From NCBI GenBank assembly GCA_963796105.1, contig CAWCKJ010000004.1, positions 416,001 to 480,000 of the forward strand: a stretch of 64,000 bases of DNA, given 5' to 3'. The notes beneath the pieces are model-generated. The model was not told the DNA's origin and ran no database searches. It worked only from the letters and a program-made list of their open reading frames with translations. This stretch comes from a candidate division FCPU426 bacterium (GTDB lineage Bacteria > Oederibacteriota > Muellerivitia > Muellerivitales > Muellerivitaceae). A program made the position numbers and the translations under genes. Every line of letters begins with the position of its first letter. The first letter of the stretch is position 1. Below are positions 1,322 to 63,648 of the stretch, piece after piece.

Positions 1322-1396
1322 TACCGATTTCCAATAATTAATAAATGTTAATCGTCACTATACCGATATCTTTAAATGTTTATATGAAAGTCGGCA
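1322..1396 (-). repeat. double-hairpin MITE-like element, copy 1
   Basis: TACCGAT...AGTCGGCA, flanked by TG on both sides, inside a CTCTGAGTCCCTG|TGGTGA repeat. Confidence 0.8.
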
Positions 1397-1417
1397 TGTG
1401 GTGAGTTTAAGGTTTTT

Positions 1418-1927
1418 TTACCCTTTTTTAAAAGTCAGCTTGATGCCCCCGCTGTTTTGGGAGGGGGTTCCCCCCGCGGCTTTGAACCGTTGGGCCATAC
1501 GGGCATCTTCCTCGATCCTCTTGGCCTCCAAGGCTTGGAGCCTCTCGAAGTCCTTTTTGTTGATGGCCGCGAAGTGAACCTCTCCCCTGAATAGGACCCT
1601 CTTCAACTCCATGAAAGACTCGACCTTCTTTATTTTCGACAAAACCCGGAAGGTAGTGCGGTGCTTGGCCGCGAACATCTCGATTTCAATGATTTCATTT
1701 TTGGAAAAAATGCTGTCACCCGTCAGGTGAAGGTCCCCGTAGGAGGAGTTCTTGTTGAGCACGTAATACAAATCCGCATTAGGCAGGTCGAACCCGCCGG
1801 ATTTCCAGGATTTTTTTCTCGGGGTCTTCTTGGGCTTCACTCGTTGGTATTTCACTTCCACCATCGACTGCATCATGCCCTTGCCGTATTTTTCAAGCCA
1901 ACCTGACTTCTGGGCCATCTTTCTCAT
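1418..1927 (-). CDS. hypothetical protein, possibly a degenerate PilZ-like domain
   Basis: 169-aa ORF. NSSYGD resembles the PilZ D/NxSxxG motif and is followed by a beta-rich pattern, but there is no RxxxR. Confidence 0.55.
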   Translation of the reverse strand: MRKMAQKSGWLEKYGKGMMQSMVEVKYQRVKPKKTPRKKSWKSGGFDLPNADLYYVLNKNSSYGDLHLTGDSIFSKNEIIEIEMFAAKHRTTFRVLSKIKKVESFMELKRVLFRGEVHFAAINKKDFERLQALEAKRIEEDARMAQRFKAAGGTPSQNSGGIKLTFKKG

Positions 1928-2025
1928 TCCTTATCGTGGGTTCCTAGCAAGCGCTTTAAAAGATACCACAAATGGAAAATTCACCGCCAGTAGGCTGCTG
2001 AAAAAAGGGGCCGCCGGGGCCTCTT

Positions 2026-2652
2026 TCAGGAAAACGCCTTCGAGAGGCTCGGTAAAACGTTGGTTCGGTTGAGTTCGCGCGCCGTAAGACCCCGGGACTC
2101 CCATTCCACCAGGCGTTTCTGGTGCTCTTGCATAATGGGGCGTATCGAGCTTTCGGCGAAAACAGCCTTGAGGTGGAGGGATAAGGAACCTTCCGGGGGC
2201 CGGTTGGCCCCGGTCAGGAGCCGGGCTGCCCCATCCTGGGAACAGGCTGTCAGGAGGAATGAATTGCCTGTAAAGGAATAGATTTCCAAATTGGGAATAA
2301 TCACCTTCCCGCCTTCCTTGCCTTCCACCCAGTTGACCAGGAGCAAGACGGATTTCTTGTCCGGGGAGATGAAGGTCCTGGCCCAGAAGAAGTTCAGGGC
2401 CGGATAGGAATAGTCCCCCATCAGGGAAAAGCCTTCCTCTTTCAACTTATCCGTGACTTCCGCCTGCCAGGGCGGGGTCAGGGCCTGCACCATTCCCTCC
2501 GGAGCCGGCACCAGGACCACGGAAACTTTGGGCATCCCCTCGTAACCTTGGGGCGGAGACGTCCTCTTTTTCCGCCAGGGTATTTCGGTCACGAGGATAT
2601 AGCCGATGACGATGCCGATGAGAATGAGAAGTATGCTTCCGCCCAGCCCCAT
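2026..2652 (-). CDS. hypothetical membrane-anchored protein
   Basis: 208-aa ORF with an N-terminal hydrophobic helix and AAAGGA upstream. Confidence 0.7.
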   Translation of the reverse strand: MGLGGSILLILIGIVIGYILVTEIPWRKKRTSPPQGYEGMPKVSVVLVPAPEGMVQALTPPWQAEVTDKLKEEGFSLMGDYSYPALNFFWARTFISPDKKSVLLLVNWVEGKEGGKVIIPNLEIYSFTGNSFLLTACSQDGAARLLTGANRPPEGSLSLHLKAVFAESSIRPIMQEHQKRLVEWESRGLTARELNRTNVLPSLSKAFS

Positions 2653-2681
2653 GAAATTCCTTTTCTAAATTATGATTGATA

Positions 2682-2735
2682 TGTCATTGCGACGAATGTT
2701 CGCCGAATAGGCGAACGACAATGAGGAAGCAACCC
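2682..2735. repeat. REP-like palindrome (TGTCATTGCGA...GAAGCAACCC), empty site
   Basis: Matches the sequence flanking element copy 8 at 49540-49671 once the insert is removed. Confidence 0.7.
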
Positions 2736-2784: not shown

Positions 2785-2862
2785 CGCCGGTTTTCGTTAT
2801 TAAACAATTAATTGTAATCGATACGATACCAGCCTCACTATCGGCTTTATGGAAGGCTGGCA
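2785..2862 (-). repeat. double-hairpin MITE-like element, copy 2 (degenerate)
   Basis: CGCCGG...GATACGATACCAGCC...GGCTGGCA inside TTCATTG|CGAACCGCGAAT. The empty site is at 60881-60900. The right duplication is mutated. Confidence 0.72.
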
Positions 2863-7256: not shown

Positions 7257-7330
7257 TACCGCTATTTATAAAACTAGTAATGAATGCGGCATAGTACCGA
7301 TCTCGATAATCCTTTTATGGAAGATCGGCA
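7257..7330 (+). repeat. double-hairpin MITE-like element, copy 3
   Basis: CA|TACCGC...GATCGGCA|CA inside an AGGGACACA|GAGACCCAG repeat. Confidence 0.85.
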
Positions 7331-8789: not shown

Positions 8790-8863
8790 TACCGCTATTT
8801 ATAAAACTGATAATGAATGCGGCATAGTACCGATCTCAATAATCCTTTTATGGAGGATCGGCA
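8790..8863 (+). repeat. double-hairpin MITE-like element, copy 4
   Basis: Near-identical to copy 3 including flanks (~7243-7350 vs ~8776-8884); CA duplication. Confidence 0.85.
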
Positions 8864-9048
8864 CAGAGACCCAGCTTTCCGGCAGAATATTCCCGCTTCC
8901 CGACAGGGTTTCCGGCGCATGTTCCTAGGCCCAACAAAATCGAGGTGTTAACAGTCACCCCAAGTGTTAACACCTGAAAAATTGCGGTGTTAACAGCAGG
9001 TGTTAACACCCTAATATCGCCGGAAATGTGGGCGGGTTATCCTCCCTT

Positions 9049-9177
9049 GCCGGTAGGTGTCACCAGGTTATCTCGGCTTTCCGGCGAAAATGCCGGTAGC
9101 TGTCACCAGGTTATCCCGGCTTACCGACGGAAATACCGGTGGGTGTCACCAGGTTATCCTGGCTTACCGACGGAAAT
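9049..9177 (+). repeat. 43-bp tandem repeat x3
   Basis: Unit (g/a)CCGGT.G.TGTCACCAGGTTATC..GGCTT.CCG.CG.AAAT. Confidence 0.85.
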
Positions 9178-9511
9178 GTGGGCGGTTTATCCTCATGTTC
9201 CCGGAGCCGGATTGTGCCACTTCGGGGCGATTGTGCCAAACCGGTAAAAAATCTGTCACTGGCCAGCCACTTTAACCCCCCTGGCCGCCTACTTTGCCCC
9301 CCCTCTTTTGGGCACTTCGAGGGGTGCCTGTTTCGGGGACTTCGACCCCTGCCTTGCGGGGCCTCTTTTTTAGATTAATTTAGACCCATCAAACTCCTTT
9401 CACAAGATGCGTTTTGCTTCCCCAACATTGGATGATACGAAGTCCCGCGCAAATCCCGTAACCAATAGGCGCAAGATTGCACGAATAAGACAGCATCGAA
9501 CGATGGGTTTC

Positions 9512-10291
9512 TCATAGTTTTGCCTCTTTTTCCCTGCTGTGTTCTTTTTTCATTTCTTCGCGCATGGAACGGGTCCGAAAGGAAGGGCCCTGAATGACGA
9601 CGGCAGTGGCATGGTGGACCAGGCGGTCCATGGCAGCCGAGGCTAGGAGGGCGTCGCCGAAAAGCTCCGGCCACTCCCGCAGACTGCGGTTGGTGGTAAA
9701 AATCAAGGAGCCCTTTTCATAACGCTCACAGATGATGTCGTAAAAATCCTCGGCGACCTTGGTGTCGAAGGGCTTGAGACCCCAGTCGTCCAGGATCAAG
9801 AGGTCGGGTTTCAGGAAGGATGCGAATCGGTTTTCCCAGGTACCGTCCCCGCGCGAGGCCGCTAATCGTTGGGCCGCATGCGAGGTCTTGATAAAGAGTA
9901 CCTCATAACCCTTGCGGCAGACTTCATGGGCCAAAGCGCAGGCCAAATGGGTTTTGCCCACACCTGAGGGACCGATGAAAAATAGGTTCTCTTTTCGCTC
10001 CACGAAAGAACAAGTACCCAAATCCAGGATTTGTTGCCGGTTGATGGCCGGGTTGAAGGCGAAATCGAACCCCGTTAGAGTCATATGGGTTGAGAAGCCC
10101 GCCTTTTTCAGCCTTCTTTGGAGTTGGCCCACTTGGCGGCGCTCCAGCTCATCCAACAGCAACTGGCCCAGGAAATCCATATAACCGATCTGGGATTCAA
10201 TGGCCTGCTGGTTTCGGATTTCCAGCGTCTCCAACATACCTGCGAGTTTTAACCTTCTCAGGTGCGGCTCCAACTGATGTTTATTTTCCAT
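9512..10291 (-). CDS. istB: IS21 helper ATPase IstB
   Basis: GPSGVGKTHLA, LLILDDWG, TTN, DRLVHH, GPSFR; GAGGAGG RBS before ATG 10291. Confidence 0.95.
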   Translation of the reverse strand: MENKHQLEPHLRRLKLAGMLETLEIRNQQAIESQIGYMDFLGQLLLDELERRQVGQLQRRLKKAGFSTHMTLTGFDFAFNPAINRQQILDLGTCSFVERKENLFFIGPSGVGKTHLACALAHEVCRKGYEVLFIKTSHAAQRLAASRGDGTWENRFASFLKPDLLILDDWGLKPFDTKVAEDFYDIICERYEKGSLIFTTNRSLREWPELFGDALLASAAMDRLVHHATAVVIQGPSFRTRSMREEMKKEHSREKEAKL

Positions 10292-10304
10292 ATATGCTTC
10301 CTCC

Positions 10305-11861
10305 TCAATTTTTATCCAGAGCCAAGGCACGGAGGAAATCCTCCGCGGGCCGGGCGAAATCGAAAGACGACTGGGGTTTGAGTGAAGGATCCGACGGCGG
10401 GTCCAACGGGTTTTGATCGAGGTTCTTTTGAAGGATGTTTTTGATGGATTGGTACGTGTAGTTTCCGAAATGGAGGGCCCTTAGACAGGCTGCCTCCAGA
10501 CGGGAAGGCAGGTACTTTTCCCTCAAGCGCAGAATGCCCTGGGCTTTGCGCAGATGGTCCAGGGGGTGGGAGTGTTCCAGCAGGAGTTGGATTAATTGAT
10601 GGGTATTAGGTCCAATGGCCTGGGCCTGTTTGAGGCACCATTGTGGGGTTCGTTCCAAGAAGACCGCTTTTTCAGGGGGATAGTGGCCCGGGTTGGTGCG
10701 CCAGGTTCCCTTGCGTGTGGCCTTGGCGTGGGAAGCCACGCATTCGTGTTTGAGAAATATATCAACGGTGGTGTCGGTTAATTGGGCCAGTAGTTTTTGG
10801 CCCCGAAGACGGTAGGGAGCCGAGTAATAGGAACCTTCCACGACTACGTGGCAATCGGGGTGCAGAGTGGCTTCTTTGAAGAAAGTTGGATGGTAAGCCG
10901 CGGTAGGCAGGGGCAAAAGGGCCTTCTGTTCCACGCTCTGGAAGACGGCCAAGGGTTGAAGCCGGGTGGTGCCATGATCCCGTAAACCTGCCTTGTTCAT
11001 CACCCAATCGCGGAGTTGATGGTTGGCATCGGTGCGGCCCTGGAAGGAACGACCCTTGAAGAAGGAATTACGGACATAGGGCACGCCGCGTTCAACTTTA
11101 CCCTTGTGGCGTGGAGTGGCGACGCGGCAAGGGGAGATGATGAAGCCGTAATGGTTGGCGCATTCCACGTAGGTACGGTTGGCCAAGGGATCATAGAGGG
11201 CCGCCTTGACGATGGCGCTTTTCAGGTTATCGATTACGATTTTTTTAGGGACTGAATTGAAGAACTCGAAAGCCCGGCGGTGGCAGGCGATCCAGGTTCT
11301 CACGTCCTGTGCGAATACAATCTCGGCGTACATATGCCGGGAATGGGAAAGGGTCATCACGAAAACCCAGGCCTTGGCTTGCTTGCCACGCGTCTCGTCC
11401 CACAAGCGGCCCAAAAGCCCGAAATCCACTTGGGCCTCCTCGCCGGGCGCAACCTCCAGCCTCACGTAGGCGGGTTTCTCATTGCGAAAAGGCTCCGTAT
11501 ACCTCTTCAGGGTCGAGTAACTCCCCTTCCACCCGTGCCGCTCTTGAAGCATCTCCTGGATGCGAATCAAGGTGAAATCTTCCTTCAACCATTCTTGGAT
11601 GATTCCCTTGAGGGCCTCCAAGGCATGAGCGGGAACGGGCGTGGATTTTTCGCCGTCTTCCCAAGCCTTCGCCAAATCCTTTTCCAGGGGAAGTTCCCCT
11701 TGGAGAAAGCCATGTTCTTTCGCCCAACGCACGTATTGCTTGACCGTGTGCTTATTGCATCCCAGGGCCCGGGCAGTGGGTTTGAACCCGCCCAAGGCCT
11801 GGTAAGTCCTCAAAATCTCACGAATAGTCGCCATGTCGCTCTGCCTCCCTTGTCGGGTCAT
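10305..11861 (-). CDS. istA: IS21 transposase IstA
   Basis: N-terminal HTH, PGEEAQVDFG, IVIDNLKS, KGKVER (DDE), YSAPY. Confidence 0.95.
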   Translation of the reverse strand: MTRQGRQSDMATIREILRTYQALGGFKPTARALGCNKHTVKQYVRWAKEHGFLQGELPLEKDLAKAWEDGEKSTPVPAHALEALKGIIQEWLKEDFTLIRIQEMLQERHGWKGSYSTLKRYTEPFRNEKPAYVRLEVAPGEEAQVDFGLLGRLWDETRGKQAKAWVFVMTLSHSRHMYAEIVFAQDVRTWIACHRRAFEFFNSVPKKIVIDNLKSAIVKAALYDPLANRTYVECANHYGFIISPCRVATPRHKGKVERGVPYVRNSFFKGRSFQGRTDANHQLRDWVMNKAGLRDHGTTRLQPLAVFQSVEQKALLPLPTAAYHPTFFKEATLHPDCHVVVEGSYYSAPYRLRGQKLLAQLTDTTVDIFLKHECVASHAKATRKGTWRTNPGHYPPEKAVFLERTPQWCLKQAQAIGPNTHQLIQLLLEHSHPLDHLRKAQGILRLREKYLPSRLEAACLRALHFGNYTYQSIKNILQKNLDQNPLDPPSDPSLKPQSSFDFARPAEDFLRALALDKN

Positions 11862-12316
11862 GCCGTTCTCCTCACATGAAGTGAAAAAAGAAAGGAATGA
11901 CGGTTAGAGAGGCCCTTGGCAAGGGGGTCAAAGTCGGTGGCCAGACAGGGGGTCAAAGTGACTGGCCAGAGGTGGGGTCAAAGTGCTTGGCCAGCTAGGG
12001 GGTTAAAGCTCGCGGCCAATGACAAAAATCGGCATGTCACCGAGTGGCACAATGGCACAATCGGTTGGCACAATCAAAAACGGTTGTTAAAAACACCAAT
12101 AAAACCACAGTTTTATCTGACACCGGGTTATTGGCGCCCATTATCTTGGCGCCAACACACCCAAATCACATGCTTCGCCTTGTAGGCTCAGCATAGGGGT
12201 ATCCTGGCCGATTATGCCACTTTTTGGGGATTGTGCCACTTCGGGGCGATTGTGCCAAACCGTCAAATCCCGAAACCTGCGGGCAGGAATGTGGGCGGTT
12301 TATCTCCCTACCGACG

Positions 12317-12638
12317 GAAACTCGAGAATCTTGGAACTCTGGAACTCACCTGGAACCACCAAAATTCGAGAATCTTGGAACCTTGGAACTCTGGAACTCA
12401 CCTGGAACCACCGAAATTCGAGAATCTTGGAACCTTGGAACTCTGGAACTCGCCTGGAACCACCGAAACTCGAGAATCTTGGAACCTTGGAACTCTGGAA
12501 CTCGCCTGGAACCACCGAATTTCGAGAATCTTGGAACCTTGGAACTCTGGAACTCGCCTGGAACCACCGAAACTCGAGAATCTTGAAACCTTGGAACTTT
12601 GGAACTCGCCTGGAACCACCGAAACTCGAGAATCTTGG
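12317..12638 (+). repeat. 52-bp tandem repeat, ~6.2 units
   Basis: Unit GAAACTCGAGAATCTTGGAACCTTGGAACTCTGGAACTCGCCTGGAACCACC starting at 12361, 12413, 12465, 12517 and 12569, with partial units at both ends. Confidence 0.95.
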
Positions 12639-12750
12639 TGCCGCCTCATGACCATAGACATCTAGCCCAAAAAACCGCCATGTCCTTAGTTCCCCGGCCC
12701 CAAAGTCGCCGGAAAACCTCAATAATTCAAAATTCCCGTTTTTGGGGCTA

Positions 12751-24346: not shown

Positions 24347-24436
24347 TGGCGGAGAGAGAGGGATTCGAACCCCCGTTACGCTTTCGCGTAAAGCTGATTT
24401 CGAGTCAGCCGCATTCGACCACTCTGCCATCTCTCC
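24347..24436 (-). tRNA. tRNA-Ser (CGA)
   Basis: GGAGAGATGGCAGAGTGGTCGAATGCGGCTGACTCGAAATCAGC...GGGGGTTCGAATCCCTCTCTCTCCGCCA; 90 nt with a long variable arm. Confidence 0.97.
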
Positions 24437-24483
24437 GGTCATTCCAAAACCCTTTGCTGGAAAGGGATTTACAACTTTTTCCT

Positions 24484-25585
24484 TTACGCCTGGGCCTGCT
24501 GGTTTGTGCCCGGTGTCATAACCGTGTCAATCAAACCCGCCATCCGGCCCAAAGCGACCTTCCGGTCCTCACGGTCCACCCGGTCATAGCGCCTAAAGAC
24601 CGCGTAGGTCTTATGGCCCGAAATGGACATGATCACCGTATCACTGACCCCGGCCTTACGGTAGTTCGTCACCGCGCAATGCCTCAAGTCGTGGAACCTG
24701 AAATCCTCGATTCCCGCCTTCCGGCACGCCGCTCGCAAAGCCGTTCCTGGGGTCCCTAACACGCTTGCCTAGGTAGAAAAAAACGTAAGGGCTTCCCAAG
24801 ATCCTGGGTATCCGTTGAAAGAGGGCTATCAGCTTTTCGTTCAACGGTATTTCCCGCTTTTCCTGTGTCTTGGTGTCGGCGGCTTCTAGGGTGATGACCC
24901 CGTTTTTGAGGTCCACCTGATCCCACCGCAAGCCCAGGATTTCCCCCCGCCTCATCGCAGTCCAATACGCCAGTTCCACTATATCCCGCAAATGAGGGCG
25001 ACAGCAGCCTAGCAAAGCTTGGTACTCCCCGGCGCTCAAAGTCCTGTTCCTGGAATGTTCCTTAAAGTGTTGAATCCCCGCAATCGGATTGCGGTCCAAC
25101 TGCCTGTTCAAAACCGCCCGGCTCACGATGGTTTTGAGGCAGGCAACGTCCCGGTTGAGGGTCGCGTCCTTTAAGGCCTTGCCCTGCTTAATCAGGCTTC
25201 CCTGTTGCCGCCTTTGAAGAAGGTAGGCGTCCACCAGGTCCACCGTTAAGCTCTGCAAGGGCCGGTTTCCAAAGAAGGCTTTCAGCCTCACCACTATCTG
25301 GGCGTCGTTCCTAAAAGTTTTTTTCCGGGCCTTTGAATAGGCAAGGAAGGAATCCGCCGCTTCCAGGAATGTGGTTTGGGGCTTGTCGCTGTCAAAATAC
25401 TTTTGCTCAACGATAGCCTGCATTTTTTGGGCTAGTACCCTTTTAGCTTGGGCCGCTGGAATCTGTCCCAAACGGACCCTCTTGCGCTTCCTCAACCCTC
25501 CTTCCCGGATGAAATAATCCAAAAAATACCCCTTGTCGTCCTTGCGGAGATGTTGGGGCAATCCATAGACATTAGGCTTGCTCAT
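24484..25585 (-). pseudogene. tyrosine integrase, frameshifted near 24733
   Basis: TAMRRGEILGL in ORF 24656-25585; FHDLRH, ISGHKT and RRY lie in another frame (24484-24762). Confidence 0.88.
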
Positions 25586-25836
25586 ATCTGCCTCCTAATG
25601 TCCCCACCAGCAAGAGTCATTGTATCAACGACACCCGCCAAATGTGGACTGGGTTTTTGAAAAACTTGAAGGAACACCGAATACCAAACCCTGGGGTGTT
25701 TGCCCACTTTCGCAAAGGGAAGGACGCCGGTTTGCCGCCAGTAACGGACGGTATTGACGGAAACCAGCGCCATCTCGGCCACTTCCTCGTCCGTCATTAA
25801 ATGGTTCCTCCGTTCTATATTCCTGCGTTCTTCCAT
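25582..25836 (-). CDS. excisionase-like HTH protein
   Basis: LMTDEEVAEMALVSVNTVRYWRQTG.LP..KVG; overlaps the integrase start. Confidence 0.85.
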   Translation of the reverse strand: MEERRNIERRNHLMTDEEVAEMALVSVNTVRYWRQTGVLPFAKVGKHPRVWYSVFLQVFQKPSPHLAGVVDTMTLAGGDIRRQI

Positions 25837-26222
25837 TGATTACCTCCTCAAGTCTAAAGATTGAAAATAATGGACCTGAAAGGTCCTACCTTCGGGGAAA
25901 GGTGTGGAAAACCCCGCTCTATAAACCTGTCCATTCTTTTTGGACAGGTTCCTGGGGGGTTTTCCACGGTTTTGTAGTTGCCGTTGACTTTGACTTTCGC
26001 TGTATCTGTATTCTTTTATTCTTATATCTTTTGCCTCTACGCCCGCGCTTTTAGGGGTGAGTCTGTCTAAGAGGCCAGACCCCACTATCGAATTCCAGCA
26101 CTCATGTAATGATGCTGGGAGAGTGGGGTCTGGCGTCGCAAGACAAGCGAACCCCTGCCTTTTGCGGGCGTTTCTTTTGTTTTTTGGGTAAAGCTGTTTT
26201 ACCCTCCGCTGGAAATTCCGAT

Positions 26223-27116
26223 TCATGCTTCCACCCCTTCCGGCTTTGCCTTTTCTATGGCCTGGGGGATTTTGAGGATGGGGTCTTTCACGAAGGGAAG
26301 GTATTCGCCTTCCAAATTGACCCAAGGGACCCTGATAAAAGGCAGGGTGGCCGCCTTCCCGAAAAAGGAAAAGCCCCAAAGGTCCTTCTGCCGGGGATCA
26401 CCCTTGAGGTAAGTAGCCAAGCCTCCCAAGAGCCTTACGGCCTGTTCCTTGTCCCGGCTTACCACCAGCCGCAAGGCCTGGGGAAAGTCCCGGTCCAGGT
26501 TTAGGATCATGGCCGCAATCTGTTGCCGGTTGTAGGGGCTATGTTCGTATTCCAGGACAAAAGCGTAGGGTTGGCCTTCCAGAGTGGCTCTGAAATAGCC
26601 GTCCGGGGTGCGCTGGTTCAGCCGCCTTAGCTTGGTCCCGGCCAGCTCCCAGCCCCGGCCTTCCTCCAAGGCCTTCTTCCAGGACATCTTCAGGCCGCAC
26701 CGCATTTCGTAGTCCGAAAGCCAGGTTAAGCCCTCCCAGGCAGGGTCCGCCTCGAAATGGATTCTCATTTCTAACAGGCGGCGGTCATGCTCCCTCTCAA
26801 AGGTGTTGATATGGGGGGAGCGGACTTCCACCGAAATGAGGATTCGGGCAAGCCCGGATAGCTGGCGCAAGGCGGGCCGGGATAAGTAGTAATAGGTGTC
26901 CTCGTTGGGGAGATTTTGGATCTTCAGCAGAAGACCTTTTTCTTCCAGGCTTCGAAGCCGCAAATAGGCGGTCTTGTAGGATTGGGATGGGTGGAATTTC
27001 TTGTGGAAAAGCTTGGTGGTGATGAACTTGTTGGAATGGATATAAGCCAGGGTAGTCACATCAACGGGGTCTATTTCCAAGGATGGCTTGGTTAGGGTTT
27101 TGATGTCTTCAGGCAT
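26223..27116 (-). CDS. replication-relaxation family relaxase
   Basis: N-terminal wHTH (RLRSLEEKGLL), EHD, and PDGYF...LEYE nuclease-like motif; coupled to the T4CP gene. Confidence 0.78.
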   Translation of the reverse strand: MPEDIKTLTKPSLEIDPVDVTTLAYIHSNKFITTKLFHKKFHPSQSYKTAYLRLRSLEEKGLLLKIQNLPNEDTYYYLSRPALRQLSGLARILISVEVRSPHINTFEREHDRRLLEMRIHFEADPAWEGLTWLSDYEMRCGLKMSWKKALEEGRGWELAGTKLRRLNQRTPDGYFRATLEGQPYAFVLEYEHSPYNRQQIAAMILNLDRDFPQALRLVVSRDKEQAVRLLGGLATYLKGDPRQKDLWGFSFFGKAATLPFIRVPWVNLEGEYLPFVKDPILKIPQAIEKAKPEGVEA

Positions 27117-28884
27117 TGTCGTCTCCCATCCGGTTTCCAATCTTTACCGGTTCCTTTTTGGCTTCCTCGGGAGTAATGAGCAGGGAGCTTTCCTTCTTCC
27201 TTTCACGGTACTGCCTGGGGCCAAGAACAATTTCAGGGTTGAAGCCCACCGGGGCTGTAGTAGCACTACCCAAATCGCTTTGGAAAACAAAGACTCCGCC
27301 ATTCGCCACGACCTTGACGATGGCTTGGCCGGTCCTGAGTTCCTTGATCCTGTTGGGGTGGAACCGGAACTTTTCCGTGATGGGGACGCTGTAACCGGCC
27401 ATCGTGTGGTCCGCCAAATAGGAAGTCACCCTGGCTTCCCGGTCCAGCTCGGTCCCGAATTGCCGGGCGAAAGATTCCGCCGTATCCGGGTCGTTCACCC
27501 TCAAAATGATCTTGTTGCTGGTGGTGTTCATCACCTGTTCCTGGAACTCCGGGGAAACGCCCCTCAAATCCCCTAGGGACTGGTGCGCCAGGAAGAGGTT
27601 CACCTGGGCTTCCCGGCATTTGTTGATGAAGTCGATGAACCGGGGATAGGCCAGGTTGTAGAACTCGTCCAGGAAGACCCGGAAGGGGTTCTCCGGCGTC
27701 ACCCGGTACCGGTCCGCCACCTGCTCGGATAGGTCCATCATGGCGAGGATGGAGAGGGCCTTGGCGTCCTGGGGGTAACGGGCGAAATTCGGGGAGAAGA
27801 GAAAGACTTGGCCGTTCGCAACCACATCCGCCATGCGGATATTCGGCTTGCGGGTGTTCAAGAGGTAGGCCCATTCGCTGTTACAGAACCGTTGGAGCCT
27901 GTTGACGAGTCCCGCCAACTCCATCCGGCGTTCCTTGGGGGACTTGCCCATCCACTGGTCCCGGAAATAGGAAGCATAGGGGGTGTTGGGATATTTCGAG
28001 CAGAAGGAACCGATGGTCTTGAAGGTATCGGCTTCCTGGGTGGCATAAAGCACGTCCTCGAATATCAGGGTTTCGATCTCTTCTTTCAAAAGACCGACGA
28101 GGTTCCGTATAACGGCTTCGGCCAATAACGAGTAATAGGGCTCGCCGCTTATGGCGTCGTGATAAAGGGCCGTGTAAGCCATGTTGGCGATGGCGTCCGG
28201 GTTGTTCCCGTAAAGGGGGTTGTAGCCGCCGGAGCGGATGAGATCGATCAAGCTGAAATGGCGGAGAGTGCGGCCTGCTTGGCTGACGTAATAGGCAACA
28301 TCTTGAAGCATGTTGCCTTTTACGTCGCTGATGAAACACCCCAAACCCTGCTTAATGGTCTGCTCGATAAAGGGCATGATGACGTAATGGGTCTTTCCGG
28401 TGCCTGTACCGCCAATTATTTGCACGTTCTCGTGGAGGGAAGAGGTTGGGAAGCCCCTCCCTCTCTTGGGAGCGATGAGTAAGGGATACTTGCCGTAATC
28501 CACATGTCTTTTCTTGACGGATTTGAAGAAAAAGCCCGCCATGGCTCCGGCGGTCAATAGGGCCGCCAAGACGAAGTAAAACCGGTTGTAATGCTCGGTG
28601 AAAGGGTCCAGCAGGGAAACGGCCATGGAAGCGGAGGCCAAAAGCTTGGTGCCGATGAAGATGTCCTTATCGTCACGGAACCAAAGAAGAAGGCCATATG
28701 GGATGATGAAGATCAATACCCATTGGCCCAGGAAGTGGTGGTTATAAATATCCGGGTCCGGGAAGGTGCCGTCTAGGTTCCCGAATCCAATAAAAGGCCA
28801 TATAAAATTGATGGCTATGAATATAAAGGGAAGAGAAACTACCAACATAATGACTTGATTGAAACTGCTCTTCGATTCGTCCAT
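27109..28884 (-). CDS. type IV coupling protein (TraD/VirD4-like)
   Basis: N-terminal TM helices, GGTGTGKT, DVKG, YNPL, FLDEF, AHQSLGDL. Confidence 0.9.
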   Translation of the reverse strand: MDESKSSFNQVIMLVVSLPFIFIAINFIWPFIGFGNLDGTFPDPDIYNHHFLGQWVLIFIIPYGLLLWFRDDKDIFIGTKLLASASMAVSLLDPFTEHYNRFYFVLAALLTAGAMAGFFFKSVKKRHVDYGKYPLLIAPKRGRGFPTSSLHENVQIIGGTGTGKTHYVIMPFIEQTIKQGLGCFISDVKGNMLQDVAYYVSQAGRTLRHFSLIDLIRSGGYNPLYGNNPDAIANMAYTALYHDAISGEPYYSLLAEAVIRNLVGLLKEEIETLIFEDVLYATQEADTFKTIGSFCSKYPNTPYASYFRDQWMGKSPKERRMELAGLVNRLQRFCNSEWAYLLNTRKPNIRMADVVANGQVFLFSPNFARYPQDAKALSILAMMDLSEQVADRYRVTPENPFRVFLDEFYNLAYPRFIDFINKCREAQVNLFLAHQSLGDLRGVSPEFQEQVMNTTSNKIILRVNDPDTAESFARQFGTELDREARVTSYLADHTMAGYSVPITEKFRFHPNRIKELRTGQAIVKVVANGGVFVFQSDLGSATTAPVGFNPEIVLGPRQYRERKKESSLLITPEEAKKEPVKIGNRMGDDNA

Positions 28885-28943
28885 TCCACACCTGGTTTTC
28901 CGGAAACCGCCCTACTCACAACCCCCGGCGGTTTCCCGCCGGG

Positions 28944-29144
28944 TTATGGTTTAGGCGGCCTCCAATCTGTTTCACGGCGCTTTTTCATGTATTGGGCCTC
29001 AATGGCCCGTTGGATCAAATCGGTCCTGGTTCGGCCTGACCGCTTTTGCTCCTTCTCAAGAGCCTCAACTAAATCCGGAAAGAGCCGAATGATGACCCGG
29101 ATTCCACCTTTGGGTTGAGGCCCGCGTTTTCTCTTTGTGTTCAT
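28944..29144 (-). CDS. ribbon-helix-helix protein
   Basis: VIIRLFPDLVEALE....GRTRTDLIQRAI; heads the mob operon. Confidence 0.78.
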   Translation of the reverse strand: MNTKRKRGPQPKGGIRVIIRLFPDLVEALEKEQKRSGRTRTDLIQRAIEAQYMKKRRETDWRPPKP

Positions 29145-29760
29145 GAATTTCTTCCTTCCTTTGTTTGGACGTTTACTAAAATCAAAAGTTACGAGACATC
29201 TAATAATATTAATTATGATATCAGAGATAACGATTTAAGACAATTCGTTTTCAGGTGTATAAGGGAAATCTAGAAAAACCTTTATATCAAGGTTGAGGAT
29301 TTTTTTATGCGATACTTTGATTTTTAAACCGCATCATGACACGACAAAAAACAAGGTGGAGAAAGTAGGGCAATTCATATTTTGGGGCATTGCGTAAAAG
29401 TTGAAAACCTTCGTGCCGTTTTTTACCGCGAAGCGCCAAAAATACTGCACTTTTTAAAATCAACACGGATTGTTGTTTAACGTAAAAAGCCTTTGAAAAT
29501 ACCTTATGGCGTTCATGCAACGAAATAATTTGGGCAAAAAGTATAAAAAATTAAAAAAATGGAAATACGTTCAGTGAATAATTTACTCGGCGTTATTTAG
29601 CGATGGTATACTTTACTTGTTATCCGCCACACCAACCTTTCTTTAATCCATCCAATTTTGAATCCGGAAAACATTTAAAACATTTTGGAATCAATAATGC
29701 TTTTTCTCACTTCCTCTTAGGCTTTGCCAGAGGGTTTGTGAATCAAAAAGGAGTTGGTTT

Positions 29761-30156
29761 ATGAAAAGTTTAAATTTTGAAAAAGTTGTTTTGTTTTCTT
29801 TGGCGTTTTTCTTGATTATCACGAAGAGCCAATCCACGCCTTTGGCCTCAAGCCTGACGGTTAAAGAAGTCATTGTGCCGGGGGAAATCATCGTTCGGTT
29901 CAAGCACGGTACCTCGAGGACCCACTCTGAAGGACTTTTGAACCGCCTAGGCAAAAGAGGAAACTTGAATTTTTCTGCATCTCGACCCTTGGTTTCGGAC
30001 GTTTACAAGGTTGAGCTTCAGAACGGGTATGGGGTTTTACACGCCATTATGGAATGCAGAAAAGACCCAAACGTTCTTTTTGCACAGCCGAATTATCGTT
30101 ATTACGCGCTAGGTTGTCCTTTGCCCACAGACCAATATTACAGTTCCCCCTATAAT
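29761..30156 (+). pseudogene. N-terminal prodomain of an S8-type protease, truncated by IS1380
   Basis: Signal peptide, VPGEIIVRFK, DPNVLFAQPNY, PTDQYY; no catalytic domain follows the IS. Confidence 0.72.
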
Positions 30157-33568: not shown

Positions 33569-33591
33569 AATTGTAACCACGTTTTGGTTTG

Positions 33592-33628
33592 AAAGCGGCC
33601 CGCCCCAAAGGCGGGCCGCTTTTTTTTT
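33592..33628 (+). terminator. intrinsic terminator
   Basis: AAAGCGGCCCGCC-CCAAA-GGCGGGCCGC-T9. Confidence 0.88.
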
Positions 33629-34672: not shown

Positions 34673-34674
34673 TA

Positions 34675-35175: not shown

Positions 35176-35789
35176 AAGGGCTCCTGCTCTTTACGTTCCT
35201 AACGTCAAAATTAGCAACTTCTTCACTGGATGTCCACAGGTAAGGGAAATAAGGGGGTAACGATAGTCAAGTGCTTGTGCCAAGTCAATGCTTTTATCCA
35301 AGCCCTTGTTTCAATGGGTTTCAACCCCCAATGGAAAGGGAACTGTGCGATTTAGCGTCTGGATATTAACCCTTAGATTTTTAGGACTCGAATGACACGG
35401 TTATGACAATTAGGGGTATTTACTTTTTCCCTGAAAATTCAGCAGATTTTTTGAGCACTGGATAAAAAGTCCGGTGCGTAACGCCAAAAGAGGAATTTTC
35501 CCGTGTCATAACCGTGTCATTCATGACCATGATTTACGATTATTGACCGTCGCCAACTATCACCAACCGTCACCAACAAAAAAGGCCTCTGCCTGCCCTG
35601 GTTCCTAAAACCATTGCAGACAAAGGCCCGTTAAACGCTGATGGGGACGATGAATTTTAAAAGTTTTTTAGCCGGAAAGTCTGGAAACCATCGAGGTCGA
35701 TTTCGAGTCAGCCGCATTCGACCACTCTGCCATCTCTCCGAAACGTCCACTCTGCCATCTCGCCGGAACTCAACCAAGGAAGAAGCGGT

Positions 35790-36031: not shown

Positions 36032-36108
36032 TGCCAGCCCTCCCATAAGGCTATTCAAGGGGGCTGGTATCGTAGCAATCTCCATATAAGTTTTATGGCA
36101 GATTGGCA
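36032..36108 (+). repeat. double-hairpin MITE-like element, copy 5
   Basis: CA|TGCCAGCC...AGATTGGCA|CA inside ATCCCATGCA|TCTGTGGC; empty analogue at 42298-42328. Confidence 0.85.
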
Positions 36109-36267
36109 CATCTGTGGCCAAAGTCTATTTTTGGAAAGTTGTGCTTCAAAACCCGTGTTTATTTGCGCCCATCAACATCAAAAGCGTTCTTTCGGTTCAT
36201 CTTCCATTTGCTATCATATAGCGGCCCCGGATTTATACGGGGAACCCCAATATTTGAGGTGAAAGCT

Positions 36268-36912
36268 ATGAAAAGAGTGCACATTTCCCAGATTAGGCGG
36301 AAATATTCCACCACCGGTTTGGTGGAAAAAGACGCTCCCCGGAATCCCCTGGTCCTTTTTGACCGGTGGTTCAAGGAAGCCTTGCAAGCCAATATCCTGG
36401 ACGTGAACGCCATGACCCTCGCCACCGTCTCCCCCCAGGGTAAGCCCAAAGTCCGGGCCATTCTCTTGAAGGGATTTGATAGTCGGGGTTTCGTTTTTTA
36501 CACCAATTACGAAAGCGACAAGGCACGGGACCTGGTCAAACATTCCCAGGTGAGCATGCTCTTCTTCTGGCCCCTCTTGAAACGGCAGGTCCGCGTTGAC
36601 GGCAGGGCCCAAAAAGTCCCGGCCAAGGAATCCGACCAATACTTTAAAATTCGGCCCCGCGACAGCCAGATAGGGGTCTGGGCTTCCCGCCAGAGCCGGG
36701 TGATCCCCGGCAGGGAGATTCTGGAAAAAAGCATGAGGCTCCTGGAAAGGAAATTCAGGAACAAACCCGTGCCCCGTCCCCCCCATTGGGGCGGCTACCG
36801 CGTGATTCCGGAAACATTCGAATTCTGGAAGGGCCGGCCCCACCGCCTGCACGACCGGATCCGCTACAACCTCCTGAAGGGAAAATGGAAAATAGACAGG
36901 CTCTCCCCCTGA
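36268..36912 (+). CDS. pdxH: pyridoxamine 5'-phosphate oxidase, copy 1
   Basis: NAMTLAT, LLKG, FYTNYES.K, RQVRVDG, WAS.QS, RPPHWGGY, EFWKGR..RLHDR. Confidence 0.95.
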   Translation: MKRVHISQIRRKYSTTGLVEKDAPRNPLVLFDRWFKEALQANILDVNAMTLATVSPQGKPKVRAILLKGFDSRGFVFYTNYESDKARDLVKHSQVSMLFFWPLLKRQVRVDGRAQKVPAKESDQYFKIRPRDSQIGVWASRQSRVIPGREILEKSMRLLERKFRNKPVPRPPHWGGYRVIPETFEFWKGRPHRLHDRIRYNLLKGKWKIDRLSP

Positions 36913-36913
36913 A

Positions 36914-37717
36914 ATGAAGGCGATCCCCAGGCAACCCAAGGGGCATCAGGCCCCTTCCCCCCCCGATCCCCAGGCCGTCTCCCAAATGAGGCGGGAATAC
37001 AACCCGTCGGCCCAAAACAGCTGGGGAAACCCCATGAAGGCCGTCCGGTTTTACAAATACTGGTTCCAGCAGGTCCTTCGGGTCATTTCGGTCATGAAGC
37101 ACGAGTACAACACCAGGGGCCTCACCGAGAAATCCGCTTCCGCCGATCCCTTCGAACTGTTCCGGATTTGGTTCGAGGAGGCTGTGCGTTCCAAGGTGCT
37201 GGACCCCAACGCCATGACGCTGGGCACCCTCGGGAAAAATTCCAGCCCGGCCCTTCGGACGGTGCTCCTGAAGGGTTTCGATCCCTCGGGTTTCGTTTTC
37301 TACACGAACTACGAGAGCCAAAAGGGGAGGGAAATCGACCGTAAGGGCTCGGCCTGCCTCCTTTTTTATTGGCCCACCCTGGTGAGGCAGGTTCGCATCG
37401 ACGGCAGGGTCCAAAAGGTCTCGGCGGCGGAATCGGACGAGTATTTCCAGAGCAGGCCCAGGGGAAGCCAACTTTCCGCTTGGGCCTCCAGGCAAAGCAG
37501 GAGCGTCCCTGGAAGGGAAACCCTGGAGAAGCAAATGGCGGCCTTTGAGAGGAAATTCAAGGGAAAACCCGTGCCAAGGCCTCCCCATTGGGGGGGGTAC
37601 CGCCTTGTCCCTCATCGCTTTGAGTTTTGGAACGGCCGTCCCAACCGCCTCCACGACCGTTTGTGTTACACGAAAAGTTCTTCCGGCAAGTGGTTTCGGG
37701 AACGGCTTTCGCCGTAA
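36914..37717 (+). CDS. pdxH: pyridoxamine 5'-phosphate oxidase, copy 2, with a duplicated N-terminal segment
   Basis: Same motif set; the start is uncertain (36914 or ~37093). Confidence 0.9.
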   Translation: MKAIPRQPKGHQAPSPPDPQAVSQMRREYNPSAQNSWGNPMKAVRFYKYWFQQVLRVISVMKHEYNTRGLTEKSASADPFELFRIWFEEAVRSKVLDPNAMTLGTLGKNSSPALRTVLLKGFDPSGFVFYTNYESQKGREIDRKGSACLLFYWPTLVRQVRIDGRVQKVSAAESDEYFQSRPRGSQLSAWASRQSRSVPGRETLEKQMAAFERKFKGKPVPRPPHWGGYRLVPHRFEFWNGRPNRLHDRLCYTKSSSGKWFRERLSP

Positions 37718-37864: not shown

Positions 37865-37938
37865 TGCCGATCTTATATGAAAAACATAATGAGATCGGTA
37901 CGATACCAGCCTCATTGAAGTTCTATTGAAGGCTGGCA
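37865..37938 (-). repeat. double-hairpin MITE-like element, copy 6
   Basis: TG|TGCCGATC...GGCTGGCA|TG inside GTGGTTCTGAAAGAACCTG|TGGTG; empty analogue at 46625-46650. Confidence 0.88.
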
Positions 37939-42145: not shown

Positions 42146-42219
42146 TGCCAGCCTTCCGTAAAGCTTTTAATGTGGCTGGCATGGTACCGATCTCTTTATA
42201 TTTTTATGGATGATCGGTA
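42146..42219 (+). repeat. double-hairpin MITE-like element, copy 7
   Basis: CA|TGCCAGCC...GATCGGTA|CA. Confidence 0.85.
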
Positions 42220-42378
42220 CAAGTCTGAGGACCGTGGAAAAATTCATTTTTCCATCGGCCGTTAGCTGGACCATAGAACATGATCGAAATGCGCTTTAAA
42301 TCCCATGAATCCCATGTATCCGTGGCTAGAGAGTGTTTTAGATAGGTGTATAAACAAATATCACAAATCGGAATTCCC

Positions 42379-46458: not shown

Positions 46459-46674
46459 GGAAATTGATCCTTATAGTCCGCCGGGGGAATTAACCGTGAT
46501 TTCGGCCCGGGTTTAAGAAATGTAACTTCTTGCAAAACTAAAGCCCAACCCAATTGGTCCTTCTCACGGCATAGGAACCCAGTTTAAATCCTCTGAAAAT
46601 TGAGGTTTTTTTCCTACTGTGCCCCTGTGGTTCCAAAAGAACCTGTGGTGGGTTTGGATTTTTATTTGTTACTT

Positions 46675-49547: not shown

Positions 49548-49623
49548 TGCCGATCAACCTAAAAAAAATTTTTAGAGATCGGTACGATACCGACCTCTTT
49601 AACAGTTTTATGGAAGGTCGGCA
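49548..49623 (-). repeat. double-hairpin MITE-like element, copy 8
   Basis: TG|TGCCGATC...GGTCGGCA|TG inside GTCATTG|CGAGGAATG; empty analogue at 2682-2735. Confidence 0.88.
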
Positions 49624-60871: not shown

Positions 60872-61596
60872 ACTCAAAGTTGTCATTGCGAACCGCGAAT
60901 TTTGCGGGGTGCTTGAAGCGCGTTGGCCCTTTGGGCCAAGCGTGGTTGGCCGTAGGCCAACTACAACCCCAGTTTGAATAATCCCGTTCATTGGTGTCAT
61001 CTACCAACAGGGGTGCTAACCCATTAAACGGAACTGGGATAACCCGTTAAACGGAAGATAACCCGCCCACATTCTTGGGAACATCCGTCGGTAAAGGTGA
61101 TGAGGCCGCCCAAAAGTACGAGGAGGTCCTACTCCTGAATCCAGATGAATTTTTATACTCGGAATACGCGAGGGAACGCATCAAAAGAATTGGTTTTATC
61201 ACTCCCAAAAAAAAGGTTGGCGCAACTCCTATACCTACTATTGGCATCGATAAATGGCGTAAGTTTTTGGAATTTTCCTCACGATGGTGAATCACTAAAA
61301 GCCATGAGGCTTAGGACACCTTTGAACAAGACCGGCTTTACTCGATGATTTAATCGGGGTATTTTAAGCAAATAAAATTTGCATATTTATCGTGTAATTC
61401 GGGCTGAGTCTGCTATTCTTGTTGGGTCTAATCGCTTGTGCTTCATCGATTTAGCCATAAATCGAGTTTTGTTTTATTTGCCTCTGAAATTACTTTCATT
61501 GGAAGTTTTCACACCGGACTAATCAAATATCAATAAACCATGAGCAGCCAAATCCCAAAAAGCTGAACAACATTAAAGGAAAGGATTGTATTTTTT

Positions 61597-62850
61597 ATGG
61601 ATATTACGGAACTGAAGCAGAAAAATATCGTCGAGTTGACGGAAGTTGCCAGGGGGTTGAAGATCGAGGCCGCCGGCGCCATGAAAAAACAGGATTTGAT
61701 ATTCAAAATCCTGGAAACCCAAGGAAACGGGGTCATCAACGCCGAGGGGGTCCTGGAAATCCTTCCTGACGGTTTCGGCTTCTTAAGGTCGGTCAACTAC
61801 AGTTACCTGCCGGGTCCTGATGACATATACGTCGCCTCATCCCAGATCCGAAGGTTCAATTTAAGAACCGGCGACACAGTCGCCGGCCAAATCCGCCCGC
61901 CCAGGGAAGGCGAAAGATATTTCGCGATCTTGAAAGTTGAGAGCGTCAATTTCGAACCCCCTGAGGCCATTCAGAAAAAAGTCCTGTTCGACAACCTCAC
62001 CCCCATTTACCCCGACAAACGGATTTGGCTGGAAACAACCCAGGAAGACCTTTCCATGAGGATCATGGATCTCCTGATTCCCCTGGGAAAGGGCCAGAGG
62101 GGATTGATCGTGTCACCCCCTCGCGCCGGAAAAACCATCTTGCTTCAGAAAATAGCTAACAGCATTACCAAGAACCATCCCGAGGTCGTTTTGATCGTTC
62201 TTTTAATCGATGAGCGTCCTGAGGAAGTCACGGATATGCAGCGCTCCGTCAAGGGAGAGGTTGTCTCGTCCACTTTCGATGAACCGCCGGAGCGCCATGT
62301 CGCGGTCGCGGAAATCATCATTGAGAAAGCCAAAAGGCTGGTGGAGCATAAAAAGGACGTGGTAATTCTCCTGGACTCCATCACCCGCCTGGGCCGGGCC
62401 TATAACACGATCGTCCCCCCCTCCGGGAAAATTTTATCAGGTGGCGTGGATTCCAACGCCCTCCAACGGCCAAAGCGTTTCTTCGGGGCCGCCCGGGGCA
62501 TGGAAGAAGGCGGCAGTTTGACCATTATCGCCACCGCCCTCATCGACACGGGAAGCCGGATGGATGAGGTGATTTTTGAGGAATTCAAGGGCACGGGCAA
62601 CATGGAAATCATCCTGGACCGGAAACTCGCGGACCGGCGTGTTTTCCCGGCTTTTGACATAACCCGGTCCGGAACTCGACGGGAGGAACTCCTTTTAACC
62701 GAGGAGGAACTAAACAAAATTTGGATTTTGCGGAAAATTCTAAGCCCAAATAACCCTGTCGAGGCGATGGAATTCCTCTTGGATAAAATGAGGCGGACGA
62801 AAACCAACAAGGCCTTTTTGGAATCAATGAAGGGGAACGTGGAGCTTTAA
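61597..62850 (+). CDS. rho: transcription termination factor Rho
   Basis: [34 protein letters not shown]. Confidence 0.99.
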
Positions 62851-62968
62851 ACCGCGGGTCAGTTCCGGCATTGAATATATTTTTCTAGCGCGGCCCTCTT
62901 TTCCAATGGATTAAAATGGTTTATTAATATTGCTTTGAAATTGTGTCTTTGTTAAGAAATAACCCTCC

Positions 62969-63544
62969 ATGATCACAACCACCCACATCCTGTTGAACAC
63001 GGCTATCCTGGGCCGCAAGAAGAACCCCGAGCGGAATTGGGCCTTGATCCTGGGCTCCTTCATTCCCGATTCGCCCATGATTTTTTATTTCATCGTTCTT
63101 TTCTTCAACCAATGGCGCTTCGCCGGCACGGGAAAAAACGCCCTCTCCGAGTTCCACTACCGTTTGCTTTGGGTGGATTGGGCCCATTCCCTCCCCCTGG
63201 CCGCAGGGGGAATGCTTCTTTGCTTGTTGCTGAAATACCGGAAAGCCGTCTATGTTTTCGCGGCCATGGCCCTGCATGACCTGGAAGACCTACCAGTTCA
63301 CGCGGATTTCGTCCACCGCCATTTCCTTCCCTTGAGCAACTGGCGTTTTTTCAGCCCCATTTCCTTTTGGGACCCGAACCATTACGGCAATTACTTCGCC
63401 CCCTTCGAGTGGTTCCTCGTTCTTCTTTCAACCATCCTGCTTTGGCGAAGAGGTCTCAAGCCTCCGGCGCAGGTGGCCTTGATCCTCATCTGCGTATTTC
63501 ACGGGCTCTGGCTGCTTTACTCCTACGCAGGATTGCGCTGGTAA
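62969..63544 (+). CDS. membrane protein, possible metal-dependent hydrolase
   Basis: TH, GS..PD, HS, LH...D...H pattern with TM helices. Confidence 0.6.
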   Translation: MITTTHILLNTAILGRKKNPERNWALILGSFIPDSPMIFYFIVLFFNQWRFAGTGKNALSEFHYRLLWVDWAHSLPLAAGGMLLCLLLKYRKAVYVFAAMALHDLEDLPVHADFVHRHFLPLSNWRFFSPISFWDPNHYGNYFAPFEWFLVLLSTILLWRRGLKPPAQVALILICVFHGLWLLYSYAGLRW

Positions 63545-63574
63545 AACTTCCAACCAAAACCTAATTCCACCACA

Positions 63575-63648
63575 TGCCAGCCTTCAATAAAACTTTTAAT
63601 GGGGCTGGTATTGTACCGATCTCAATATCACTTAATGGGAGATCGGCA
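63575..63648 (+). repeat. double-hairpin MITE-like element, copy 9
   Basis: CA|TGCCAGCC...GGCTGGTA-TTG-TACCGATC...GATCGGCA|CA inside CACCACA|GGGACACA. Confidence 0.88.

Follow-up and report, generated by a model that had tools for sequence, protein, structure and literature searches.

We analyzed a 64,000-nucleotide stretch of a candidate division FCPU426 genome (contig CAWCKJ010000004.1, positions 416,001 to 480,000; hereafter, the window), in which an earlier sequence-only reading had described nine copies of a double-hairpin repeat. We found that the nine copies are genuine members of a family and not chance. Members carry a 2-nt core at their ends, a single core marks the uninterrupted sites and tandem junctions, and the linker between the two hairpins matches that core. 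On balance, we favor a reading in which this gene-less element moves as a single-stranded circle that would be cut and reinserted at the core by a trans-acting strand transferase encoded elsewhere; the circle, the enzyme, and a guide role for the linker are what these sequence patterns suggest. It is possible, though on the whole doubtful, that the family represents minimal mobile DNA of a new class, namely, a single-stranded 76-nt dumbbell whose two internal bases would set the insertion dinucleotide and which would use a host-encoded enzyme rather than any transposase and ride on the ends of small nuclease-gene units.

In the genome of the window (G000), a profile built from its own copies identified 187 loci when the cutoff was E<1e-5 and 205 when it was E<0.01; the reversed genome gave none. 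A few of the 205 are halves of split copies, and the family comprises about 190 to 205 loci. A genome scan using structure only gave 108 matches versus 0 and 2 in shuffled sequences. By a covariance model of 64 diverse copies, 27 of the 30 other genomes in the bacterial family carry the element (28 of 31 with G000), compared to none of 68 genomes from other families of the phylum, with at most 47 candidates scored per genome. The element was not found in G008, G012, and G017, which are 85, 93, and 97% complete. About 140 metagenomic stretches had the pattern, giving 120 distinct matches; the first hairpin could be parsed in 115 of them, with CA on the left in 110 of the 115. A search for the junction pattern returned no match in viral contigs and five in genome contigs, with no full element among the five, and copy 9 of the window matched nothing among plasmids and phages. 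Rfam returned only a tRNA in the window. In the literature searched for a matching element or for its host repeats, we found no description of the element, although repeat catalogues in supplements could hold the family. Some copies are old and vertically kept, because an insertion upstream of an ftsE-like gene is common to several genera (L014, L019, L166, L171, L206, and L215).

The element is laid out as a 2-nt core, hairpin 1 (mostly 36 nt), a 3-nt linker, hairpin 2 (mostly 35 to 36 nt), and the core again. Both stems are 8 bp. Across 219 unique copies from G000 and its relatives, stem positions 3 to 8 were 89 to 100% Watson-Crick, and positions 5 to 8 were 89 to 98% with a mutual information of 0.24 to 1.15. 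Pairing the outer ends or the inner arms at positions 5 to 8 instead gave 9 to 49%, and end-to-end pairing gave 10 to 49% with mutual information of at most 0.17. Position 2 is a conserved nonpair, G-T in hairpin 1 (189 copies) and A-C in hairpin 2 (165 copies). In the 64 diverse copies, double-sided changes filled 81 cells versus 20 in shuffles, a count inflated by sequence relatedness, and none of 500 shuffles reached 81. Covariation is internal to each hairpin and absent between the outer ends; each half therefore folds on itself, and the element is not of the terminal inverted repeat (TIR) type. These data support the proposal of the sequence-only reading that this is a nonautonomous mobile element recognized by structure, and the pattern implies an element that would fold as a single strand with unpaired bases. 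The same reading had the loops varying freely. Loop length and loop center do vary; the motifs beside the stems are conserved, and the four arms have a common consensus. Other small repeats are sometimes inserted in the loops and the central junction. Several copies are interrupted at the central junction by a second element of about 60 nt that has a short hairpin on one side only; its insertion site is apparently a duplicated TA (in G000 at C2:103367-103510, C2:154221, C2:161023, C2:164619, C4:769514, and C6:269454). The structure scan also picked up a repeated 20-nt palindromic-like motif with unlike spacers at C14:51000-51250 of G000, inside an open reading frame of a mobile-looking contig; it is not this element.

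A stable double hairpin could also be a structured RNA module, namely, a terminator, a processing signal, or a retro-mobile circular RNA. Long retention at tRNA 3′ ends across genera and an excess of copies co-oriented with flanking genes (52 versus 34) would agree with this. However, no single strand can turn both the G-T and the A-C mismatch into G-U, copies are not enriched between convergent genes (20 of 143 versus 280 of 1,890), a reverse transcriptase was not found in five of five high-copy genomes, and Rfam had no match to the element in the window. The two mismatches trade places when the opposite strand is read, and convergent genes are not favored; both observations fit DNA rather than RNA. 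We therefore regard an RNA module as extremely unlikely.

Of 205 loci in G000, 171 could be parsed and 143 had both stems. An identical dinucleotide stood on both sides of 131 of these 143. The sequence-only reading had described a duplicated CA; the 2-nt duplication held, while the core is not always CA and has CG and TA variants. After tandem members were dropped, we rebuilt the site of each copy and looked for uninterrupted look-alikes in the genome (22 nt, at most 3 mismatches). With one core kept, 98 of 106 rebuilt sites had a look-alike, compared to 8 with both cores kept and 2 with both removed. The same rule appears in 11 tandem arrays, where a single core lies at 30 of the 31 junctions listed, some of them between unlike units. 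In a relative at about 80% gene identity (G001), we found precise filled and empty paralogues (L279 versus L084) as well as one versus two elements in the same host repeat (L073 and L090 versus L072 and L085).

The linker matches the core, a relation that had escaped the sequence-only reading: it consists of the core's reverse complement with one free base in the middle, giving the combinations CA/TNG, CG/CNG, and TA/TNA. Linker base 1 complements the core base before hairpin 1, and linker base 3 complements the core base after hairpin 2. Our parser used neither core nor linker. Among the 219 copies, 178 were CA/TNG/CA, 10 were CG/CNG/CG, and 8 were TA/TNA/TA; 23 were other combinations, some of them misparses. 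The middle base was A in 94, C in 82, T in 35, and G in 8. We also selected copies by linker only, searching 31 family genomes for central junctions whose linker was CNG or TNA. The sample of 60 loci and 20 further regions gave 80 junction matches, a subset of all, and 24 of these had both stems. Copies with a CNG linker had CG on the left in 10 of 13 cases (on both sides in 8) versus 3 of 193 TNG copies, and copies with a TNA linker had TA on the left in 8 of 11 cases (on both sides in 7) versus 2 of 193 TNG copies. The rule was obeyed in 18 of the 24. A few of the 24 were already among the 219 and many are kin, and thus the number of contexts weighs more: at least eight host contexts obey the rule. 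The CG contexts are two host repeats seen earlier, a third at C2:101674, a new host in L336, tRNA-Arg(acg) in four genera, and tRNA-Leu(cag). The TA contexts are the ATCCCATG host, C16:8083, and a new host in G019, G023, and G024, where the copies form a TA/TNA subfamily. Because the linker complements the core, a strand closed at the core would form a dumbbell with one unpaired base opposite the joint.

Could an ordinary duplex transposase leave the same pattern? It would insert the element with a 2-bp target duplication, and hairpin-templated repair would later align the stems and the linker-core match, with no circle and no guide. Even in the linear form, linker bases 1 and 3, which lie directly against the stems, pair with the inner core bases, the CG/TNG/CG copy L080 resembles an intermediate, and the consensus common to the four arms could bind a dimeric protein. 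Nevertheless, we consider this explanation unlikely. The position 2 mismatches are left uncorrected in about 9 of 10 copies while their neighbors covary, the termini do not covary, and no insertion sequence (IS) with these ends is present among the multicopy repeats listed.

In the single-stranded circle model that we prefer, the two hairpins would stack in exposed single-stranded DNA, and an enzyme would exchange one strand at the two cores; hybrid copies are compatible with an exchange point before, inside, or after the core. Once released, the 76-nt circle would fold shut as a dumbbell in which a single base bulges out across from the joint. The element would stay on the other strand, and replication would restore the duplex and raise the copy number. 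The circle would then insert where a target offers the matching dinucleotide, such as the end of another copy, which would build arrays, or position 70-71 of some tRNA genes. Insertions into mobile repeats, mainly the ends of GxxExxY nuclease units, would have multiplied with their hosts. We predict that a transferase of the phosphotyrosine type, either an HUH enzyme or a tyrosine recombinase, does this. The GC skew was too irregular to assign strands for a replication-strand bias.

Reinspection of the window bore out the nine copies, their coordinates, their stem variants, both orientations (five on the plus strand and four on the minus strand), and lengths of 74 to 78 nt; no tenth copy was found within the 64 kb. 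In these nine, 88% of 160 stem cells pair, compared to 18 to 43% when partners are slid by 1 to 3 columns. CA flanks the element on both sides, in its own orientation, in all but copy 2. Copy 1 (1322..1396, minus strand) has two 36-nt hairpins around a TAG linker in a CCACAGGG-type (GxxExxY-end) repeat, and its rebuilt site has 9 uninterrupted look-alikes genome-wide. Copy 2 (2785..2862, minus strand) has a degenerate second stem that failed the two-stem parse, a TCG linker, flanks TT and CA, and a GTCATTGCG-type host repeat. Copies 3 (7257..7330) and 4 (8790..8863), both on the plus strand, have hairpins of 35 and 36 nt around TAG, with 21 and 40 empty look-alikes, respectively. Copy 3 lies in a GxxExxY-end repeat, and copy 4 is 92% identical to it over 124 nt, host included; therefore, element and host were copied together. 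Copy 5 (36032..36108, plus strand) has hairpins of 38 and 36 nt around TCG in a ATCCCATG..GTGG host with 31 empty look-alikes, and copy 6 (37865..37938, minus strand) has 35 and 36 nt around TCG in a CCACAGGT-type host with 12. Copy 7 (42146..42219, plus strand; 36 and 35 nt around TGG) and copy 8 (49548..49623, minus strand; 36 and 37 nt around TCG) each have four. The host of copy 8 is of the GTCATTGCG type, which flanks a GIY-YIG-motif gene elsewhere in the genome. Copy 9 (63575..63648, plus strand) has 36 and 35 nt around TTG in a CCACAGGG-type host with six empty look-alikes.

All four uninterrupted host sites that the sequence-only reading had named in the window are present, each on the plus strand. 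Those of the kinds split by copies 8 and 6 lie at 2682..2735 and 46617..46652, and the start of one of the kind split by copy 2 lies at 60881..60901. The site for copy 5, at 42298..42329, is a variant with a TA core rather than CA. At the syntenic region of G001, element and host are both missing for copies 5 to 8.

Repeat residence was clear. Copies lay inside repeats in 98 of 106 cases. Among control CA sites, the proportion was 69 of 250 for random intergenic positions and 89 of 200 for positions near copies; counted by host class, the figure for copies was 20 of 25 (p = 3e-4 versus the nearer control). The enrichment inside other repeats in the earlier reading stood, while its wording that palindromic repeats are targeted was not supported. 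By our motif list, 76 of 106 solo-copy hosts belong to the class of short direct-repeat units found on either side of GxxExxY genes, some targets are tRNA 3′ ends, and the rebuilt targets had no common fold. Weighted by host class (50 classes, 243 sites), targets are strongly conserved in the core only, with weaker biases at -2, +2, and +3. Other host repeats flank a GIY-YIG-motif gene, and one host is presumably linked to DUF559 genes. Three tRNA genes of G000 carry copies at position 70-71, where the left end of the element restores the tRNA 3′ end. Longer variants and arrays occur at the 3′ ends of tRNA-Arg(tcg), tRNA-Arg(acg), and tRNA-Leu(cag), are common to several genera, and each restore the tRNA end (G000 C8:2073-2454, C4:1278239-1278679, and C2:4045; L030, L037, L253, L259, and L277).

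A few old insertions might have spread later as passengers, by host-plus-element duplication and tandem slippage only. The nearest neighbor of a copy sits in the same host class in 66 of 99 cases (17 expected), no cluster of elements at 90% identity spans two host classes, and orthologous sites of G001 copies mostly lack host and element together. Against this, one genome has 23 host classes and the whole set has 50, each of the two largest hosts contains 13 to 23 element clusters, and a single host can show several insertion positions and both orientations; heterologous tandems occur as well. Spread by duplication only is thus very unlikely, and we read the data as repeated insertion followed by copying with the host, not as proof that repeats are actively targeted. 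Much of the repeat enrichment may be hitchhiking, since no 90% cluster occurs in more than one host class.

The GxxExxY-type units flank GxxExxY genes in inverted orientation in 12 loci listed, and three of their motifs also occur as gene-less units (76, 45, and 46 empty copies). They look like the ends of an undescribed mobile unit, and end repeats of this kind were hardly described in the literature searched, with three hits. GxxExxY (PF13366) genes between inverted short direct-repeat units lie at C4:1488805-1489206 and C4:589026-589328 and in L281 to L292. A host nuclease of this kind could have been hijacked, with a GxxExxY PD-(D/E)XK protein cutting junction-like DNA in the end repeats and in the double hairpin and host repair and ligase joining the ends. 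The 76 of 106 solo copies in such repeats, the 12 inverted loci, and the gene at C4:589026, with filled repeats on both sides, would all agree with this. So would the gene's distribution: it was found in 22 of the 25 family genomes, including G000, on which profile counts here and below are based unless stated, and thus in 21 of 24 others. However, gene count does not track copy number (rho 0.08), the gene also occurs in noncarriers (G012 and G017) and outside the family, and other hosts and tRNA ends are entered with equal precision. The predicted fold is only weakly PD-(D/E)XK-like, with no match at E<=0.001 and with Cas4 and lambda exonuclease ahead of Hjc. We judge a hijacked GxxExxY nuclease to be quite unlikely.

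The sequence-only reading saw no cognate transposase in the window, and we likewise found none beside any copy or inside a loop. Because fragmented metagenome-assembled genomes lose multicopy genes, negative profile results mean not found rather than absent. Y1 genes were present in 18 of 25 genomes. All 16 Y1 matches in G000 carry their own ends, including the 5 that lie within 2.5 kb of a copy, and none recurred beside copies in other genomes. Long Y1 HUH transposases of 312 to 317 amino acids lie within TIRs at C2:159139-160092 and 13 other G000 loci and are apparently active, as they are multicopy and near-identical. These Y1 insertion sequences fit the TIRYT description in excerpts of PMC3733652 and PMC6006769; having their own ends, they were rejected as the cognate source. 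The ends of the local IS200 are unrelated to the element as well. A Y1 enzyme may still be the mover, given the losses in fragmented assemblies. No integron integrase exceeded the TIGR02249 cutoff in 41 genomes. We kept a single Xer-like recombinase as a candidate, by elimination. It is order-wide (24 of 25 family genomes and G025) and below all NCBIfam cutoffs. In G000 it lies at C3:368879-369841, with a palindromic TATAA-N6-TTATA dif-like site just upstream at about 369915 to 369945 (see also L047 to L070). The outer arms of this site differ between genomes and stay palindromic; they resemble the element stem in some genomes, a likeness that fails in others. Canonical XerC/XerD-like matches look weak in the family.

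A gene-bearing version of the element was likewise not found. None occurred among 226 junction matches in G000, and a long-range G000 scan gave none that was convincing, with 44 far matches that resemble chance coding matches (8 in a shuffle). None occurred in the 120 distinct metagenomic matches with hairpin 2 intact, from which a gene inside hairpin 2 would escape. No solo hairpin stood beside a candidate enzyme, and no enzyme-type gene recurred as a neighbor apart from the Y1 insertion sequences. Scans of G000 gave no autonomous IS with the element's ends among the multicopy repeats listed, with ISfinder outside the search.

The element could instead be a MITE (miniature inverted-repeat transposable element) of the IS110/IS1111 or serine-recombinase type, moving as a double-stranded circle through a 2-bp core. 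The 2-nt core at both ends, the tandem copies, and the residence in repetitive extragenic palindromic (REP) sequences match MITEPpu9 as given in excerpts of PMC12288879, and a circle joint would have inverted arms around 2 bp. However, IS110 was found in 3 of 25 genomes and resolvase-type genes in 9 of 25, with neither found in G016, G011, and G023. The local IS110 was rejected as a source since its ends are unrelated to the element. Targets have little in common beyond the core, and covariation within each hairpin is unexpected for duplex DNA. In addition, 76 bp is very small for a duplex circle. This makes the IS110 or serine-recombinase explanation highly improbable. The G001 IS110 (L279, L084) itself ends directly against the GGGGTCAG motif, the start of the long Y1 TIRs, and may target these TIRs.

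Several points weigh against a single-stranded circle moved by a trans-acting enzyme. Circle and excision are deduced from sequence patterns, and coverage of the stretch in three DNA contig sets was too thin to reveal excision. Once the element is in place, repair templated by a hairpin might also bring the linker into line with its neighbors. The sequence-only reading had looked to filled and empty orthologous sites, and only the paralogues described above were found; between G000 and G001, no orthologous pair turned up in which one host is intact and empty. Of 64 G001 copies examined, 25 had synteny, 3 of them with an element in the matching G000 interval, and the G000 sites of the 25 mostly lack host and element together. 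The linker rule has exceptions in 6 of the 24 linker-picked copies; named exceptions are three CA/TNA/CA copies, two CG/CNG/AG copies, L257, L080 (CG/TNG/CG), and L037 (CA core, CAG linker). The copies in the linker-core counts are nonindependent. When six sampled copies were folded as DNA circles, the dumbbell was obtained for most, and not all were minimum-energy on both strands. No cognate enzyme lies beside copies or inside loops. The search for Y1 genes gave none in 7 of 24 other family genomes, three of which hold 29 to 38 copies, and the Y1 gene count does not follow the copy number of the element (rho 0.29, p = 0.15). The Xer-like recombinase is also found in noncarriers, with its own dif-like site.

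The window has other features of mobile DNA. From 24350 to 35740 is an integrated element, bounded by a tRNA-Ser and a 42-nt copy of the tRNA end at 35699. It encloses a split tyrosine integrase, a TraD-like coupling protein, and an IS1380-type transposase, and G001 has an intact tRNA at the matching place. An IS21 (istA/istB) lies at 9048-12689 between 43-nt, 25-nt, and 52-nt tandem repeat arrays, and two tandem pyridoxamine 5′-phosphate oxidase genes lie at 36103-37717.

If the two linker bases do set the target, swapping them would retarget the element, and if the enzyme is host encoded, this would be among the smallest mobile DNAs with self-set target choice. The family keeps a record of the reaction in its exact ends, its one-core empty sites, and the variants in which target and internal bases change together. 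A 76-nt oligonucleotide substrate with a defined product and a built-in specificity swap would thus be a handle for finding the enzyme. The family also points to the GxxExxY end repeats as passenger-carrying mobile units. The manner in which bacterial small palindromic repeats spread is an open question, as excerpts of PMC8266576 state for REPs.

Among known systems, RUP, ERIC, and Correia are listed as TIR-type MITEs in excerpts of PMC3733652. Our element is similar to these in size, in a 2-nt flanking duplication (131 of 143), and in a 4-nt terminal inverted match. However, it covaries within each half and not between termini, where such MITEs have covarying TIRs of 15 to 30 bp, and its core is mostly nonpalindromic and oriented. 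Integrative mobile elements exploiting Xer (IMEXs) use Xer and dif; their folded site rebuilds dif and they insert at dif. The dif-like site here has TATAA-N6-TTATA, whereas the element joint does not, and the element's targets are not dif.

In genomic behavior, the closest systems are MITEPpu9 and REP doublets. MITEPpu9, which belongs with ISPpu9 of the IS110 family, is gene-less, has a 2-nt core at both ends, forms minicircles and tandem copies, and is inserted in REPs (excerpts of PMC12288879). Our element shares one core in the empty site and between tandem units. It differs in that no parent IS with the same ends was found, it is 75 nt long, and its core varies with an internal base pair. 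Its roughly 50 unrelated target classes also differ from the single extended target of an IS110/IS1111 bridge RNA. As with REPs, REPINs, and bacterial interspersed mosaic elements, it is a high-copy, intergenic, gene-less hairpin doublet with a conserved stem mismatch, tandem arrays, and residence inside other repeats. REP systems include tail-to-tail dimers and dimers inserted in other palindromes, and one TnpA-REP group chooses its cleavage dinucleotide by base pairing (excerpts of PMC3733652 and PMC8266576). The REP rule is a 2- to 5-nt loop on a 7- to 20-bp stem (PMC6006769, in part), whereas our element has 18- to 22-nt loops, 8-bp stems, and 35- to 38-nt hairpins. Its consensus and alignment columns have no GTAG (GGAG/GTGG) or CGTC tag at the hairpin foot, its core on both sides is matched by a split linker, and no tnpA-REP gene is flanked by its copies.

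For the reaction itself, single-stranded DNA circles with base-paired site choice have precedents in IS200/IS605 (excerpts of PMC6006769 and PMC8266576) and in integron cassettes (10.1101/2022.09.11.507474, in part). The element is like a cassette in its predicted single-strand fold with unpaired bases, its predicted exchange of one strand and circles, its arrays, and its wide genomic landscape. It differs in having no cargo, in a crossover that would fall at the center of a symmetric dumbbell, and in that an integron integrase was not found. Integron attC boxes are GTTRRRY/RYYYAAC, and the element consensus lacks GTT/AAC boxes. Like IS200/IS605, it has two hairpins, one at each end, a predicted single-stranded circle, and putative DNA-DNA pairing for site choice; gene-less derivatives of that family are known as palindrome-associated transposable elements (PATEs). 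Unlike IS200/IS605, which use a tetranucleotide 5′ of each hairpin foot, its targets strongly conserve the 2-nt core only, its two pairing bases lie between the hairpins with a single base separating them, and its hairpins abut the cut sites. What appears to be new is the self-matching core, which is unusual in a small nonautonomous mobile DNA. Taken together, the element would resemble IS200/IS605 ends or an integron cassette without cargo most closely in how it works, and MITEPpu9 and REP doublets in its genomic behavior, while departing from each in a defining feature.

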